Of a DNA stretch of 64,000 nucleotides, positions 2,723 to 24,271 are shown one piece after another (within the stretch, counting starts at the first letter, position 1; every line of letters starts with the position of its first letter). The position numbers were made by a program, and so were the translations under genes. Below the pieces are notes generated by a model. It worked only from the letters and a program-made list of their open reading frames with translations. It was not told where the DNA came from and did no database searches. The stretch comes from a virus (lineage: Duplodnaviria > Caudoviricetes), in the IMG/VR virus record IMGVR_UViG_3300011871_000002, positions 64,001 to 128,000 of that record, one strand, 5' to 3'.

Positions 2723-4972
2723 ATGATTCTCTTTAAGAAAGACTGGCTTAAATATCCGACCGCACAGGCGGACTGGGATACGCGCAACCAAAGCTTTGTG
2801 CGCATGGCGCTACTCCTGCACTCGATGGGTGTGGAAAACTGCGTCTTCATGCTCGCTCTCATCAATCCGCGTCTCAAGGGAGTCGACCCCCATAGCAAGA
2901 ATTTGACGGTTGAGCAAATGACCGACATCGGTGTCGAGTGCAAACTCAATCCCTGGTACTTCTTCCGCGAAGTCGCCTTAGCGCCGGGTAACGGTAGCAA
3001 CGAGGGCGTCATGGTGGAAGCGAACCGCGGCAACATTTGCCTGTGGTGGTGTTTCTTCAACCACATCACGATCTTCCTGATCCAGATTCGTCAGACCGGT
3101 AAATCCTTTTCCACTGACGTCTTGATGGTGCTCCTGATGGAATTCATCTGCGAGAAGACCACCATCAACCTGTTGACCAAGGACGATACGCTGCGCCGTT
3201 CGAACATTGAGCGCATGAAGTCGATCATCGCCGACTTGCCAAAGTACCTGCAACACAAGCACCCGGACGACGCCAATAACACGGAAGAAATTACCGTGAT
3301 GTCGCACGGTAACCGTTACAAGACGCACGTGCCGCAGTCTTCACCTAAGCGCGCCATTAACATGGGTCGCGGTCTGACCTCGCCGATCTTCCAGATTGAC
3401 GAAGCCCCGTTCCAGCCAAACATCGAAATTGCATTGCCAGCAGCACTGGCAGCAACGGGTGCAGCAGTGGACCGCGCCAAAGCACAAGGTTCGCCTTACG
3501 GCACCATCTTCACCACAACGGCTGGTAAAAAGGACGACAAAGACGGCGCCTACATGTACCGCTTAATTTCCAATGCCGCGGTGTGGTCGGAAGCTTTCTA
3601 CGACTGTGTCGACCAAGCGGACTTGGAAAAGACCGTGCTGTCAGCCTGCCGTGTGGAGGGCAAGGTCAAGAAGGCGGCGATCAATGCTACTTTCAACCAC
3701 CGCCAGTTGGGTAAAACCGACGAGTGGCTGGCGGGCAAACTGGCTGACTCGTTTGCCACAGGTGAAGACGCGAACCGAGACTACTTCAACATGTGGACCT
3801 CGGGTAGCCAAACGTCGCCACTGCCGATTTATGTCCTCGAAGCCATGGCACGCTCAGTCAAGGATGTGGCCTACACTGAGATTACCAAGCCATACAACTA
3901 CATCACGCGCTGGTACATCCCGAAAGACCAGATTGCACAGCGCATGGCGAGCGGCAAGTTTGTCATGGGTATGGATACCAGTGAAGCAATTGGCCGAGAT
4001 GAAATCTCGCTTGTGCTGATGGATGTGGAGACGCTGGAAGTGATCGCGGCTGGTTCGTACAACGAACTGAACCTGATTACTTTCTCCGAGTGGCTCTGTA
4101 CGTTCATGATTCGGTTTGAAAACGTGACCGGCATCATTGAGCGTAAATCCACGGGCGGCATGATTCTGGACTACCTGATCCTGAAATTGGCATCGGCCGG
4201 CATCGACCCCTTCAAGCGACTCTTTAACTGGGTAGTCAACGATAACGCCTTGCATAAGGACCGTTATCGGGAAGTCGCCTGCACGCCGATGCATCGGCGC
4301 CAGCACGGTTGGATGGATCTGTACAAACGCCTGTTTGGCTTTGCTACATCGGGTAGCGGCGCCACTAGCCGTAATGAACTCTACTCGACTACGCTGCAAA
4401 ATGCGGCACAGTTGGGAATGAACTGCATGAACGATAAACCACTCGTGGACCAGACCGCGGGTCTTATCACAAAGAATGGTCGCGTGGACCACCCGCCGGG
4501 CGAGCACGACGACATGACCATCGGTTGGCTGCTGTGCAACTGGATGCTGTCGCAGGGTACGAACTTGGTGCACTACGGTATCGATCCTGGTCGCATCATG
4601 TGCAAGGTTTCCCGTGGCGGGAAACAGAAATCCCAAGAAGAACAGTGGATTGAAGAAGAGCAGGCAGCTTACCGCCAGCGCATGGATGTGCTGATGGAGC
4701 GCCTGAAGAATGAACCGGACGAGTACGTTTCGCAAAAGCTCGAACAAGAACTGCGTATGATCGACTCGCGCTTGGTCCGCGAGATCGGTGAAACGTTCAG
4801 CTTGGAACAACTGTTGCAAAACGTCAAGGACGCGAAGTGGAATAAGCGGCGTCAGAACAAGACTGACCCCTACGGCCACCTGCGTCATTTCACGGGTAAC
4901 CATTCGTACAGTAATAACGAGCACGGGTTCATATCGAGTGAGCCAGCATACCGCTCAAGCCGCTATTTTTGA
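2723..4972 (+). CDS. terL: Terminase large subunit
   Basis: Walker A IRQTGKS, Walker B FQIDEA, nuclease acidic motifs MGMDTS and HDD; GGAGGAG RBS before ATG 2723. Confidence 0.9.
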   Translation: MILFKKDWLKYPTAQADWDTRNQSFVRMALLLHSMGVENCVFMLALINPRLKGVDPHSKNLTVEQMTDIGVECKLNPWYFFREVALAPGNGSNEGVMVEANRGNICLWWCFFNHITIFLIQIRQTGKSFSTDVLMVLLMEFICEKTTINLLTKDDTLRRSNIERMKSIIADLPKYLQHKHPDDANNTEEITVMSHGNRYKTHVPQSSPKRAINMGRGLTSPIFQIDEAPFQPNIEIALPAALAATGAAVDRAKAQGSPYGTIFTTTAGKKDDKDGAYMYRLISNAAVWSEAFYDCVDQADLEKTVLSACRVEGKVKKAAINATFNHRQLGKTDEWLAGKLADSFATGEDANRDYFNMWTSGSQTSPLPIYVLEAMARSVKDVAYTEITKPYNYITRWYIPKDQIAQRMASGKFVMGMDTSEAIGRDEISLVLMDVETLEVIAAGSYNELNLITFSEWLCTFMIRFENVTGIIERKSTGGMILDYLILKLASAGIDPFKRLFNWVVNDNALHKDRYREVACTPMHRRQHGWMDLYKRLFGFATSGSGATSRNELYSTTLQNAAQLGMNCMNDKPLVDQTAGLITKNGRVDHPPGEHDDMTIGWLLCNWMLSQGTNLVHYGIDPGRIMCKVSRGGKQKSQEEQWIEEEQAAYRQRMDVLMERLKNEPDEYVSQKLEQELRMIDSRLVREIGETFSLEQLLQNVKDAKWNKRRQNKTDPYGHLRHFTGNHSYSNNEHGFISSEPAYRSSRYF

Positions 4973-4977
4973 GTAGT

Positions 4978-5027
4978 CGGAAATAAACCCTCCTCCCGGC
5001 TTTACGCTAGGAGGAGGGTTTATGCCG
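4978..5027. terminator. Bidirectional hairpin with TTTATGCCG motif
   Basis: ATAAACCCTCCTCC...GGAGGAGGGTTTAT inverted repeat between convergent genes. Confidence 0.75.
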
Positions 5028-20501: not shown

Positions 20502-20909
20502 ATGGCTGCCCCATTTGAAATCGATAGCGTTTATTCGTTTGACCTTTGGCCAGCTGCGGTCTTGGGTTCCAGCCACAAGAACGTCACTTGCATGGGGGTG
20601 ATGACCGAGCGCAGCGCAATTCGTCTGGGTTGTAATACCCGCGAACTGCATGCGCAGGTCTATTCATCCCTGCCCGCAGGTACGCCGAATAATCCGGCCG
20701 CCTACAGTTACGCCGAGTTCAAAACTGAACTGGGTGTGAGTTTTATCGTAGGCATTCCTTGGATCAAGGAAGCCAGCATCCAGAAAATTCTGTCACGTTC
20801 GTATAACGTCAAAGTGGGTAACACGACCGCCGAAGACTTGCCACGTCTGCGTAACGCGTTGCTCACGAGTGGCTTCAAGGATTTTGTCATCGAACTGGCT
20901 GAAGACTAA
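20502..20909 (+). CDS. Conserved phiKZ-like protein (gp49-like by position)
   Basis: 135 aa; last protein gene before the DNA polymerase. Confidence 0.55.
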   Translation: MAAPFEIDSVYSFDLWPAAVLGSSHKNVTCMGVMTERSAIRLGCNTRELHAQVYSSLPAGTPNNPAAYSYAEFKTELGVSFIVGIPWIKEASIQKILSRSYNVKVGNTTAEDLPRLRNALLTSGFKDFVIELAED

Positions 20910-20973
20910 GAACAGTGCGCTGTATGTTATGCGCAAACAAAACGTGGTAGGAACGCTTGGTTTTTTTACTGGG

Positions 20974-21295
20974 TTACTACATGTTTTGAGTAGTAAGAGG
21001 GGTTAGGCTGACCCCGCTGCTCACCCCTAGCACCAGCTGTCTCTCCCACGCTAGGGGCGAGAACCTCTTAACGCATGGAGGATGCCAACAAACACCGCCA
21101 ATGCCCGATAGCTCGTCATTCCTTCTTCAGCGAGTTAGTCCTAATCGATCGACTAGGCGCTTGCGCTTTGCCTGTTTCCCCCTCTTTCCAGGCGAATTGA
21201 TGCGCGCTACGGTTGACGGGTGGCGTGGTTTGTGACGTGATGCGTTTTAGGGGACAGGGCTTTCGGGTCCTGTCCTCATTTTTTCTTTTATGCCG
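20974..21295 (+). ncRNA. Candidate ~300-nt multibranch structured ncRNA
   Basis: Eight or more nested stems, pyrimidine-rich loops, terminal terminator hairpin; no credible ORF. Confidence 0.65.
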
Positions 21296-21363
21296 CATGC
21301 TTCTTTTTTTGCAAAAAATACCCGCAGTAGTAATCTTGTGTTACCGTAAAGGAGTTTCCCAGA

Positions 21364-23529
21364 ATGAACGCACTAGCCGACAATCCATTTGTTCTGCCTA
21401 TCGAGGCGTACACCCGCGACCTCGACGTAGTGAAGCATTACAAATCCGATGCTGCCTGCTATTTGTCGATCATGTCTGGTCGCCCAGTCGAACACTGCGC
21501 GGCGTGGATCGAGAAACAACTGGCCAAGGGTGGCAAGTTCGAATTCAAAGACCCCAAAGTGATGTTCCTGCACCGTCAGGAAAATGGCGACCGCATCAAG
21601 CGTGCCATGCCATTCATGGGTTACCTCAACGAAGCGATCCGTAACCAAGAATTGATCGCAGCTACCTTTACCACGTATATTCATCCGTCGAAGAAGCAAT
21701 CACTCCTCGTGGACTATATCGACGATAACGTGGCAATGCGCAGCAAAGCCAAGAAGGCGATGTTCGCCGCCGATGCTGCCGGCGACAAGGCCACGGCAGT
21801 GCTCAAGAAGATCGAGCAGAATAACCGCAAGATCCGTAACAACGCTATTTCCGGCTCACACGTGACTCCGTCCACTCCGATGTATAACCCGACCGGTCAC
21901 AGCACCCTGACCTCGACCTGCCGTGTCACATCTGGTTATGGCAACGTCAACAACGAAAAACTGGTGGCAGGCAATCGCCATTACTGGTCACCGCAGATAG
22001 TAGTCAACAACATTATCTCCATCGTCAACCACAGTGACTACCAGGCCATCCGCGCGGTGATGGAAAAGTACGACCTGCATTATCCAACAACGGATGAGAC
22101 GATGGCGTGCATTCGGTATTCGACCGACCTGTACTGGCCGCGTAACCTCCAAGCACTGGCGCGCATTCGTCTGTTGGTCGACAAACTCACTCCGATCCAG
22201 CGCGCTGCATTCATGTACACGGGTGATATGTATCACCTCATGAAGCACAATGAAGCATTCGTGCGTTCGTTCCTGGATCAGTTGTCGTATCGTCCGAGCG
22301 AACCCCATGCGCATCCAGAAAAAATCATTTCTAAGGTGCGAGGCGACTATCTGAATCTGGCCGGCGTCATTTGTGCTGACATCATCATGGCGGTCAACCC
22401 TGGCAAAAACCAAGAACCGCCGTATGCGAACCTGAAAGGCACCCACGTCTATGGCATCATTGCTGCCACGTCGGAAAATATCGCCAACGTGCTGCAAAAG
22501 TATGCGGACCTGATCAAAGCGTTCTGGGTGACATCTAACGTACCAGCATCTTTGGCCAAACTGCCAGATAGCATCCGTCGTGTGGCACTCGTGTCCGATA
22601 CTGACTCGACCATTTTCACGGTTCAGGATTGGGTGATCTGGCACCAAGGCCGCCCTGGCTTTGACCCCAAGTGTAAAGCCATCGGTGGCTGCATGATCTT
22701 CTTGGCGTCGCAAACCGTCACACACATCCTGGCCAAGATGTCGGCGAACTTTGGTATCGAGCAAAAGCGCTTGTTCCAAATCGCCATGAAGAACGAGTAC
22801 TACTTTGACGTGTTCGTCCCGACCCGTGTGGCTAAGCACTACTATGCGATCAAGTCGGTACAGGAAGGTCAAATCTTTGCCAAACTCAAAGACGAGATCA
22901 AGGGTGTGCACCTGAAGTCCTCCAACGTGTCCAAAGAAGTCATCGAGGAAGCTGCGGTGATGATGCGCGACATCATGGATTTGGTTATGAATGAGCAAAA
23001 GATCAATTTGCTCACCATGGTCCAGCGCGTAGCGGATATTGAACGTCGGGTGATTGCGACCATCAAGCGTGGCGACGAAGATTATTTTAAGTCGACCCAG
23101 ATCAAGGCTGCTGAATCGTACACCAAGGCCAAAGAGGATTCGCCTTTCCAGCACCATACCTTCTGGCAAGAAGTGTTCGCACCCAAGTACGGCTATGCAG
23201 AAGAACCGCCGTATGCAGTGCTGAAGATTTCGGTGGACTTGTCCTCGAACGTGAAGATGCGCCAGTGGATGGACGGCTTTAAGGATCGCGCATTAGCCGA
23301 TCGTATGGAGAAGTATATTGCGAAGACTGGTAAGATGAAGAACATCACCACCTTCCAGTTGCCGCAACCGGTCATCGCCCAGTGCGGCATTCCGGAAGAA
23401 ATCTTCGAAATGATCAACTACCGCCGCATCGTCATGGATACCGTCAAGGTGATGTACCTCGTCCTCGAAACATTAGGTTTTTATATGGCCAATGATCGTA
23501 TCACCAAACTCGTCAGTGACGATTATTAA
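21364..23529 (+). CDS. Family-B DNA polymerase, catalytic subunit (phiKZ gp50-like)
   Basis: Motif B K-x3-N-x2-SG (KIRNNAISG), motif C SDTDS, K-x-Y and KG motifs. Confidence 0.88.
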   Translation: MNALADNPFVLPIEAYTRDLDVVKHYKSDAACYLSIMSGRPVEHCAAWIEKQLAKGGKFEFKDPKVMFLHRQENGDRIKRAMPFMGYLNEAIRNQELIAATFTTYIHPSKKQSLLVDYIDDNVAMRSKAKKAMFAADAAGDKATAVLKKIEQNNRKIRNNAISGSHVTPSTPMYNPTGHSTLTSTCRVTSGYGNVNNEKLVAGNRHYWSPQIVVNNIISIVNHSDYQAIRAVMEKYDLHYPTTDETMACIRYSTDLYWPRNLQALARIRLLVDKLTPIQRAAFMYTGDMYHLMKHNEAFVRSFLDQLSYRPSEPHAHPEKIISKVRGDYLNLAGVICADIIMAVNPGKNQEPPYANLKGTHVYGIIAATSENIANVLQKYADLIKAFWVTSNVPASLAKLPDSIRRVALVSDTDSTIFTVQDWVIWHQGRPGFDPKCKAIGGCMIFLASQTVTHILAKMSANFGIEQKRLFQIAMKNEYYFDVFVPTRVAKHYYAIKSVQEGQIFAKLKDEIKGVHLKSSNVSKEVIEEAAVMMRDIMDLVMNEQKINLLTMVQRVADIERRVIATIKRGDEDYFKSTQIKAAESYTKAKEDSPFQHHTFWQEVFAPKYGYAEEPPYAVLKISVDLSSNVKMRQWMDGFKDRALADRMEKYIAKTGKMKNITTFQLPQPVIAQCGIPEEIFEMINYRRIVMDTVKVMYLVLETLGFYMANDRITKLVSDDY

Positions 23530-23546: not shown

Positions 23547-23584
23547 TACATATCACCTCAGTGAAACTAACACTTTCACTGAGG
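23547..23584 (+). promoter_or_regulatory. Early promoter overlapping an RBS-sequestering hairpin
   Basis: TACATATCAC-N5-TGA; 11-bp stem CCTCAGTGAAA/TTTCACTGAGG covers the GAGG RBS. Confidence 0.75.
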
Positions 23585-23593
23585 AATATTTCC

Positions 23594-24271
23594 ATGATAG
23601 AAAACTTTCGAGCATTTCCGGAATTCAACGAAGGAAAAATATGCGGCGTGTATGTTCTTGTTCATGTCGCTAGTGGGAACTGGTACATAGGTAGCTCTGA
23701 TGATTTGTATTCACGCCGAGCTAACCACGAAAGCCAGTTACGTCGCGGTGTGCATTATAATCACGCACTTCAAGAAGCATACAACATACACAATCAAATT
23801 GACTATATCTGTCTTCATACCCCTACGCGCGACATTGCGTTTGAGATAGAAGAAATGATTATTCAAAGTCATCGCGCATCGGGATTTTTGTTCAACGTTG
23901 CTGATGATGTATATTCCCCTAACAAAGGAAGAGTCTTTTCGGAAGAAACCCGGAGAAAAATCAGCGAAGCAAGAACCGGCATGACACTTTCTCCGGATCA
24001 TGTAGAGAAAGTCAGATTGGCCAATATCGGTAAGAAACGCACGCCTGAGTTTTGTGAACAGATGCGTCAACTTAACATCGGCAGAGAACGTACTCCTGTC
24101 CAGCTGGAAACGATGCGGAAGTACAACACCGAGATATCAAAGAAAGTATCTGTTGACGGTATTATTTATGAAAGTATGAGCGCGGCGGCTCGCGCGCACG
24201 AAGTAGCTGTATCTACTGTCAGGCAACGTGTTAATAGCCAAAATTTTCATAATTGGAAAAATGCTGAATAA
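23594..24271 (+). CDS. GIY-YIG homing endonuclease with NUMOD3-like repeats
   Basis: GVY...WYIGSS, catalytic R and E region, SEETRRKISEARTG repeats; AT-rich. Confidence 0.9.
   Translation: MIENFRAFPEFNEGKICGVYVLVHVASGNWYIGSSDDLYSRRANHESQLRRGVHYNHALQEAYNIHNQIDYICLHTPTRDIAFEIEEMIIQSHRASGFLFNVADDVYSPNKGRVFSEETRRKISEARTGMTLSPDHVEKVRLANIGKKRTPEFCEQMRQLNIGRERTPVQLETMRKYNTEISKKVSVDGIIYESMSAAARAHEVAVSTVRQRVNSQNFHNWKNAE

Follow-up and report, generated by a model that had tools for sequence, protein, structure and literature searches.

An RNA gene between the SH3DP and DNA polymerase genes

The DNA analyzed here is a 64-kb window comprising bases 64001-128000 of the 218.7-kb IMG/VR record IMGVR_UViG_3300011871_000002, and all coordinates refer to this window unless stated otherwise. 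Judged by its gene content, the source is an uncultured phiKZ-like (chimallivirus-type) jumbo phage of the nucleus-forming type. In the window, an SH3DP gene and the gene of a divergent family B DNA polymerase are separated by a gap of 454 nt. This gap very probably contains a real, independently terminated gene for a structured non-coding RNA (ncRNA), which spans approximately 20985-21289 on the + strand and is about 300 nt long. The RNA carries three CU-rich loops. Its gene is present in a single copy, with no paralogues elsewhere in the phage record; a generic genome scan for CU-loop hairpins was uninformative. The features of the locus, other than the helices of the RNA itself, are the following.

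20502-20909, +: SH3DP gene, the upstream neighbor (Pfam PF20287, E 1.1e-28)
20923-20931, +: TATGTTATG, two overlapping TATG motifs seen in the sequence, a possible extra upstream start of the nvRNAP type
20961-20990, +: promoter-like element, T7AC (20961-20969) followed by CATGTTTTGAG, recognized by its conservation in close relatives
21250-21289, +: intrinsic terminator from a terminator scan, with a 12-bp stem (21250-21277), a U-tract (21279-21289) and UUUUA before it
21286-21295, +: TTTTATGCCG motif overlapping the U-tract, recognized by its recurrence in the window and its conservation in relatives
21364-23529, +: divergent family B DNA polymerase gene, the downstream neighbor (Pfam PF20286, E 1.2e-254, full-length)

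Fold of the RNA and its support by covariation

Homologues of the region were identified by a polymerase-guided scan in three IMG/VR contigs (L005, L006 and L007), which together with the window RNA are referred to as group A (n = 4). Compared with the window, the polymerases of these contigs are about 80% identical and the intergenic region shares about 75% nucleotide identity. Two IMG/VR DNA-pattern scans for further close homologues returned the same three relatives or chance matches only. A metagenome scan with the N-terminus of the polymerase retrieved nothing closer than loci of 42-57% identity, and SH3DP as the query retrieved no locus.

RNAalifold predicted 75 consensus pairs for the four group A sequences, 20 of which are changed on both sides. 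In the model-based alignment, 96.7% of the cells of the consensus pairs are paired, compared with 40-48% when the partners are slid by 1-3 columns. Compensatory pairs number only 1-4 in the same slid controls, and 500 shuffles never reached the observed values. The fold is thus kept by compensatory changes in three relatives. The 391-nt region is also more stable than dinucleotide shuffles on both strands, with z-scores of -3.09 (+) and -2.69 (-). Such folding z-scores by themselves prove little and carry far less weight than the comparison of homologues. All four sequences share several fixed G-U pairs, which would read A-C on the opposite strand; this assigns the RNA to the + strand.

The RNA is non-coding. 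No reading frame is conserved among the four homologues, in which the open reading frames (ORFs) of at least 25 aa vary in start, frame and length, and indels of 1-3 nt are distributed through the alignment. The possibility of a small-protein gene was rejected, since no ORF is conserved among the four sequences. A group I intron or the remnant of a homing element was likewise rejected: the flanking genes are complete and no intron model matched.

The RNA consists of a 5′ domain (H1 and H2), a hinge hairpin and a multibranch 3′ domain (H3 and a compound stem), with the following elements.

20996-21004 with 21010-21018, +: hairpin H1 with the loop AGGCU; 8 pairs, 96.9% of cells paired, one-sided changes only
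21020-21061, +: hairpin H2 with loop 1; 6 of 9 pairs changed on both sides
21064-21081, +: hinge hairpin CCUCU/GGAGG with the loop UAACGCAU; C-G replaced by U-A in two sequences
21088-21233, +: long-range closing stems of the 3′ domain, ACAAAC/GUUUGU, CGCC/GGCG and GCCCG/CGGGU (helices 5 and 6)
21109-21137, +: hairpin H3 with loop 2; 7-bp stem, 4 pairs changed on both sides
21146-21215, +: compound stem (helices 8 and 9) ending in the hairpin TTTGCCTG/CAGGCGAA with loop 3

H1 is preceded by the invariant purine tract GUAGURAGAG. The compensatory pairs of H2 lie in the stem CTCACCCCTAGC/GCTAGGGGCGAG. The 15 pairs of helices 5 and 6 are paired in 97.5-100% of cells and include one compensatory pair, whereas 7 of the 20 pairs of helices 8 and 9 (96-98% paired) are changed on both sides. 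The H3 stem was tested separately, as it is misaligned in the long alignment; 85.7% of its cells are paired versus 21-50% in the slid controls, with L005 off register by one column. The terminator stem (helix 10) is 100% paired and contains two compensatory pairs.

The original prediction, made from the letters of the window alone, had described an ncRNA of the + strand that is large and multibranched, displays three pyrimidine-rich loops and ends in a terminator. All of the stems, loops and coordinates that it quoted are found in the sequence, and the covariation supports its general picture, including the strand. The terminator was called independently by the terminator scan (21250-21277, +) and is backed by covariation as well. 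The proposed stems ACAAAC/GTTTGT, CGCC/GGCG, GCCCG/CGGGT and TTTGCCTG/CAGGCGAA are backed either by covariation or by strict two-sided conservation, and TAGCTCG/CGAGTTA, the loop-2 stem, by 4 compensatory pairs out of 7. Two proposed stems lack support in the form given. One is TAAGAGG/CCTCTTA, with which the local hairpin CCUCU (21064-68)/GGAGG (21077-81) competes; the latter, with its C-G to U-A change in two sequences, is preferred. The other is AACGCAT/ATGCGTT. The ACGCAU of the hinge loop is able to pair with AUGCGU at 21240-21245, and ACGCA and UGCGU are invariant in all four sequences; both sides are thus conserved, but the stem shows no compensatory change.

The three predicted pyrimidine-rich loops are real. 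Loop 1 occupies 21032-21049 and has the core CUCUCCC (21041-21047), which is conserved in all four sequences and has an unpaired probability of 0.52-0.96. Loop 2 (21116-21130) contains the invariant core UUCCUUCUU at 21119-21127 with an unpaired probability of 0.88-1.00, and loop 3 (21175-21188) the core CCCUCUUU at 21180-21187 with 0.91-1.00. Thus, the loops are predicted to be unpaired in all four homologues, at 0.52-1.00 compared with about 0.38 for the RNA as a whole, and their cores are near-invariant while the stems that support them mutate.

Promoter-like and terminator elements

The region upstream of the RNA contains two candidate start elements. GTTTTTTTACTRGG is invariant in the four group A sequences, as are T7AC (20961-20969) and the CATGTTTTGAG that follows it; CATG/TTTTGAG lies 14-21 nt downstream of T7AC. 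A similar arrangement, T6AC with TATGTTAT 12-16 nt further on, occurs at three other sites of the phage genome, C1:53466, 90101 (26101 in the window) and 166234, all on the + strand. The middle promoters of phiKZ have the motif AAanTTACc centered near -24, and its late promoters have a TATG core with the start at G (PMC4666361). In its sequence the T7AC element resembles the phiKZ middle-promoter motif. By analogy with the phiKZ promoters, the 5′ end of the RNA is predicted at approximately 20983-20990; the start and the timing of transcription are inferred. The TATG pair at 20923-20931 is a possible start site of the nvRNAP type by the same analogy; the TATGTTATG site is found in L006 also, and not in L005 or L007. 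No match to a sigma-70-like promoter was found ahead of the RNA. An early-promoter-like motif, CACATATYAC, has about 14 sites in the genome.

A U-rich stretch, a terminator and a long U-tail make up the usual 3′ module of Hfq-type base-pairing small RNAs (sRNAs). The segment 21245-21289 contains all parts of such a module, namely a U-rich stretch, a Rho-independent terminator and a tail of at least 6 U, with Hfq binding being putative only.

The TTTTATGCCG motif at the end of the U-tract is a recurrent element. Together with its one-mismatch variants it has 17 copies in the window versus 3.9 expected, and none of 100 shuffles reached 17. The sites include those at 5018, 8408, 14206, 17559, 24914, 39089, 46203, 48213 and 56631. 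Relatives, among them FLC9, RP31, Goslar, RTH11 and LucasX, have also conserved the motif behind the terminator. It is either the TATG start of the polymerase mRNA, with the G at 21292, or part of a terminator motif of the phiKZ style, which has been described (PMC10914365). It is a phiKZ-style terminator/TATG start motif that has been kept from the Burkholderia phages to Goslar.

RNAs at the same locus in other chimalliviruses

Among cultured phages, the polymerase is closest to those of Burkholderia phage FLC9 (51% identity) and of the Ralstonia phages RP31/RP12 and FLC1-1B (48-49%). In the window, the complete polymerase gene is followed directly by a homing-endonuclease-like gene with GIY-YIG, NUMOD3 and I-TevI DNA-binding domains (23561-24271, +; Pfam).

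Unannotated gaps of 430-540 nt lie at or beside the locus in FLC9, RP31 and FLC1-1B. In the FLC9 group, which comprises FLC9 and the uncultured L008 and L009, the gap encodes a structured RNA of about 450 nt with 21 compensatory pairs among the three sequences. Its hairpin loops UUCCUCCUC, UUUCCUCCUUGUUU and CUCCGCAA contain a literal CCUCC. RP31 and FLC1-1B have a common RNA with a UUUCUUUCCUUUA loop, and a GUUUCCUUU loop is found in both L010 and L011. The corresponding gap of the E. coli phage Goslar contains the loops AUUCCUUCUUU and CCUCCCUCU, the former of which nearly equals loop 2 of the window RNA. The Goslar 5′ end, UUUUGAGUGGU, closely resembles the UUUUGAGUAGU of the window RNA. 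RTH11, LucasX and pVa-21 each have a shorter structured RNA with the same terminator and a TTTATGCCG ending. PhiPA3, 201phi2-1 and RSF1 have only a terminator at the locus and no RNA. Coordinates were assigned as follows.

L002:2709-3244, -: RNA locus of FLC9, unannotated in the FLC9 record
L008:3466-3998: RNA locus of the FLC9 group
L009:2855-3390: RNA locus of the FLC9 group
L146:2669-2966, -: SH3DP-polymerase gap of Goslar, unannotated, fold z -3.4

In L010, an AT-rich ORF of 192 aa (3337-3915, +) without a Pfam match lies between the RNA-like region and the polymerase gene and is possibly an insertion. Pfam searches with the neighboring proteins in RP31 and L010 gave no clue.

The locus RNAs, none of which is annotated in the phage records, range in size from about 150 to 450 nt and have one to three CU loops. 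When the 5′ parts were folded independently, most relatives showed a purine-rich leader, a small hairpin and then a hairpin with a large pyrimidine-rich loop. A small H1-like hairpin after the purine-rich leader is found in the RNAs of FLC9, RP31, L010 and Goslar. The window RNA shares the defining arrangement of these loci, as it lies between or beside the SH3DP and divergent family B polymerase genes, on the same strand, and ends in a terminator plus TTATGCC. The short motifs and the order of hairpins were recognized as common across the phage groups by eye only. The group A covariance model R1 and nhmmer gave no match in FLC9, RP31, Goslar or other loci, and RNAalifold found no consensus structure in a joint alignment of 11 sequences; homology beyond group A is therefore suggested by synteny and short motifs only. 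From these shared motifs, a common descent of the locus RNAs across the phage groups is plausible. The locus RNAs of FLC9, RP31 and Goslar all carry anti-Shine-Dalgarno-like (anti-SD-like) loops, which shows that such loops recur while the remaining sequence diverges.

Two metagenome DNA runs, one of which (X1) is labeled soil, each contained a contig of 151 nt that is identical to 21305-21400 and has TTATATGCCGACCTCCGTTC just upstream. They may stem from a variant or a relative in which another sequence precedes the polymerase leader. The contigs cover 21305-21400 only and are thus uninformative on the RNA itself.

Comparison with known RNAs

No Rfam family or known cis-element was matched. 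Rfam 15, whose families include RNAIII, the toxic small RNA, group I introns, riboswitches, 6S RNA and tmRNA, gave no match at gathering thresholds in the whole window. At E ≤ 10, the region 20700-21500 showed only chance-level matches, mostly to the terminator; the best of these, sbrA, scored 21.7 bits where 45 are required. The FLC9 and Goslar regions had no family match either.

RNAIII of Staphylococcus aureus is a large multi-hairpin RNA with three C-rich loops. The window RNA resembles RNAIII (RF00503), the 6C RNA of Mycobacterium (PMC6486639) and RsaE/RoxS, all of which present C/U-rich apical loops on stable hairpins that pair with Shine-Dalgarno (SD) regions without a long antisense stretch. 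Unlike these RNAs it is phage-encoded, shows no Rfam homology at E ≤ 10, has no embedded peptide gene and is without a demonstrated target. The hosts of the related phages are Gram-negative. In their clade, Kimelman et al. reportedly found in 2012 toxic small RNAs with pyrimidine anti-SD-like motifs, which are thought to block ribosome binding. This "toxic small RNA" family of the Betaproteobacteria (RF02278) is found in Burkholderia (PMC4603805), and it is like the window RNA in consisting of small structured RNAs from the host clade of related phages (Burkholderia, Ralstonia). Its members, however, are chromosomal and 57-92 nt long, whereas the window RNA is phage-borne and about 300 nt long, and the RF02278 model had no match in the window, the FLC9 region or the Goslar region. 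CsrB, RsmY and RsmZ sponges also repeat a short motif in the apical hairpin loops of one RNA. Their motif, GGA, binds CsrA/RsmA, whereas the window RNA presents the complement UCC, and here too there is no Rfam match. The closest functional analogues are RNAIII and the 6C-type RNAs, and RF02278 in the probable host clade, although the window RNA belongs to none of these.

Non-coding transcripts of nucleus-forming jumbo phages have been reported. The sRNAs of phiKZ and 201phi2-1, detected by dRNA-seq and ONT-cappable-seq, include some that are conserved across genera and whose function is unknown; the candidates were filtered to less than 250 nt (PMC8244752, PMC11512511). The conserved sRNA of these phages differs from the window RNA in lying upstream of a tail gene (phiKZ gp182 / 201phi2-1 gp277), and the main text of the two transcriptome papers contains no sRNA at the polymerase locus. 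A 2026 review states of phiKZ that it expresses ncRNAs and says nothing further. Our literature searches for a jumbo-phage RNA at the SH3DP-polymerase locus found none described.

Possible function of the RNA

The RNA probably acts on translation. We tentatively favor, at somewhat less than even confidence, an RNA that acts in trans and pairs through its three exposed CU-rich loops with purine tracts of the SD type, by analogy with RNAIII and other C-rich-loop sRNAs. This reading is favored mainly because the anti-SD-like loops alone recur at the locus amid divergence of the remaining sequence. The literal CCUCC loops of the FLC9-type RNAs make the idea of an anti-SD mimic attractive, without proving it. 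We propose that the RNA would be transcribed independently from a promoter of a phage RNA polymerase, consisting of the T-rich/TAC element and an ATG-type start, that the transcript would end at the strong intrinsic terminator, and that it would be stable. The 5′ domain and the multibranch 3′ domain would hold CUCUCCC, UUCCUUCUU and CCCUCUUU single-stranded. These loops would serve as seeds and base-pair in trans with purine-rich SD-type tracts of phage or host mRNAs. Such pairing would occlude ribosome binding, as proposed here after S. aureus RNAIII and the sRNAs with C-rich loops, and could take place at up to three sites simultaneously.

The complementarity of the loops was assessed by a duplex test, in which they were compared with 224 crude phage initiation regions, coding controls and composition-matched permuted loops. 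The commonest 5-mers in the phage ribosome-binding sites (RBSs) are AAGGA, AGGAG, AGGAA and GGAGA. The duplexes of the loops with the initiation regions match those of the 16S anti-SD tail in stability and exceed those with the coding controls, with means of -6.0 to -7.0 kcal/mol compared with -4.2 to -5.8 kcal/mol for the controls. Several observations nevertheless weigh against an anti-SD regulator. For loops 1 and 3, permuted loops of matched composition pair with the initiation regions just as well. Loop 2 has only a marginal advantage, as 2 of 60 permutations equal its share of strong duplexes. As the permuted loops pair about equally well, the complementarity between loops and RBSs is largely compositional. 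In a 12 × 12 phage matrix, the loops showed no preference for the polymerase RBS of their own phage over those of others. The phage mRNAs themselves use SD sites, which leaves the selectivity unexplained, and a multidomain scaffold of 300 nt exceeds the needs of a simple seed-bearing sRNA. The AGAGGGG at the 5′ end is able to pair with loop 3 in all four sequences, without covariation. Finally, no RNA sequencing runs with the phage sequence were listed in a run search. The original prediction of a trans-acting anti-SD regulatory RNA or a ribonucleoprotein (RNP) scaffold therefore remains a proposal. The loops are predicted to be accessible and fit SD sites, but they do so largely through their composition and point to no specific target beyond it, and we infer the action in trans, the base-pairing and the targets.

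The fact that the loops fit the phage ribosome sites no better than shuffled loops makes a protein-binding role a serious rival, although we consider it the less likely explanation. The three CU-rich loops, with their common UCC/UUCC core, would then be repeated sites for an RNA-binding protein, such as ribosomal protein S1, Hfq, Rho or a phage protein, for example a nucleus-associated RNA binder, and the RNA would act as a decoy of the CsrB/RsmZ type or as an RNP scaffold. The repeated display of a short motif in apical loops on a large conserved scaffold suits this role, as do the compositional fit to the RBSs, the recurrence of UCC-containing loops in the locus RNAs of other phages and the conservation of the locus beside replication genes. 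However, no candidate protein was identified and no known binder of CU loops is encoded nearby, and the detail of the loops varies between loops and phage groups in a way that suits degenerate base-pairing equally well. It is distinctly unlikely that the RNA is instead a self-contained tertiary fold, a pseudoknotted aptamer or ribozyme-like structure, whose loops dock on its own purine tracts, AGAGGGG (20997-21002) with loop 3 and GGAGG/GAAGG with loop 2. All four homologues would allow a 7-bp AGAGGGG/CCCCUCU pairing, conservation of the purine tracts GUAGURAGAGGGG and GRAGG equals that of the loops, and the invariant ACGCA and UGCGU are complementary. Nevertheless, none of these contacts is supported by compensatory change, the GGGG is already in H1 and the GGAGG in the covarying hinge hairpin, and no Rfam ribozyme or riboswitch was matched. 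Inspection of the FLC9-group RNAs showed no purine tract that would match their CCUCC loops. The pseudoknot between AGAGGGG and loop 3, although possible, was rejected as it lacks both covariation and a counterpart in the FLC9 group.

The position of the RNA bears on two further explanations. A cis-acting leader of the polymerase mRNA would be a long structured 5′ UTR that arises by terminator read-through and controls polymerase expression by attenuation or by masking of the AAGGAG site. It would account for the fact that in group A, the FLC9 group, Goslar, RTH11 and LucasX the polymerase gene comes directly after the RNA, and for the complementarity of the loop CUCC or UCCUU to the polymerase RBS. 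We regard such a leader as quite improbable: a strong terminator with a long U-tract and then the recurrent TATG motif part the RNA from the polymerase gene, a different gene lies downstream of the analogous RNA in RP31 and FLC1-1B, the polymerase RBS shows no own-versus-cross preference, and the terminator showed no conserved alternative. The position between SH3DP and the polymerase, kept across distant chimalliviruses, would also agree with a replication-linked RNA, that is, a primer, an origin transcript or a cofactor of the chimallivirus replisome. No primase has been identified in the chimalliviruses, and an RNase H-clamp subunit is present in them (PMC13648687). This argument is purely positional, and a primer or origin transcript would have no obvious need for covarying, strand-specific hairpins that contain G-U pairs or for conserved CU loops, so that a replication-linked role appears very improbable.

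A switch of translation to late mRNAs without SD sites was also considered as a role for the RNA and was rejected. Genes with short leaders and no SD are few, a TATG lying within 25 nt of the start in only 6 of the 224 crude genes, 3 of which keep an SD.

Under the favored reading of a trans-acting anti-SD RNA, a more far-reaching version may be considered, which we regard as rather unlikely. The RNA of the chimallivirus locus would be a multivalent mimic of the 3′ tail of the 16S rRNA, acting in mid-infection as a decoy that competes for SD sites transcriptome-wide. If this were true, its loops would present anti-SD sequences of the CCUCC/UCCUU type beside the replication genes, and it would constitute a new, RNA-based reprogramming or shut-off of translation by a phage, unlike the ribosome-binding proteins of phiKZ.

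Significance

Nucleus-forming jumbo phages serve as models of compartmentalization and are candidates for therapy and biocontrol, and their ncRNAs are almost unexplored. The RNA described here is large and supported by covariation and has three invariant anti-SD-like loops, compared with the short sRNA candidates reported in the literature searched. Structured CU-loop RNAs at the same locus are found in phages of Burkholderia, Ralstonia, Xanthomonas, Vibrio and E. coli. As FLC9, RP31/RP12 and Goslar are cultured phages, the binding partner of the RNA is directly testable. Should the RNA act on ribosome-binding sites, or sequester an RNA-binding protein of the host, it would add an RNA layer to the takeover of gene expression by jumbo phages.

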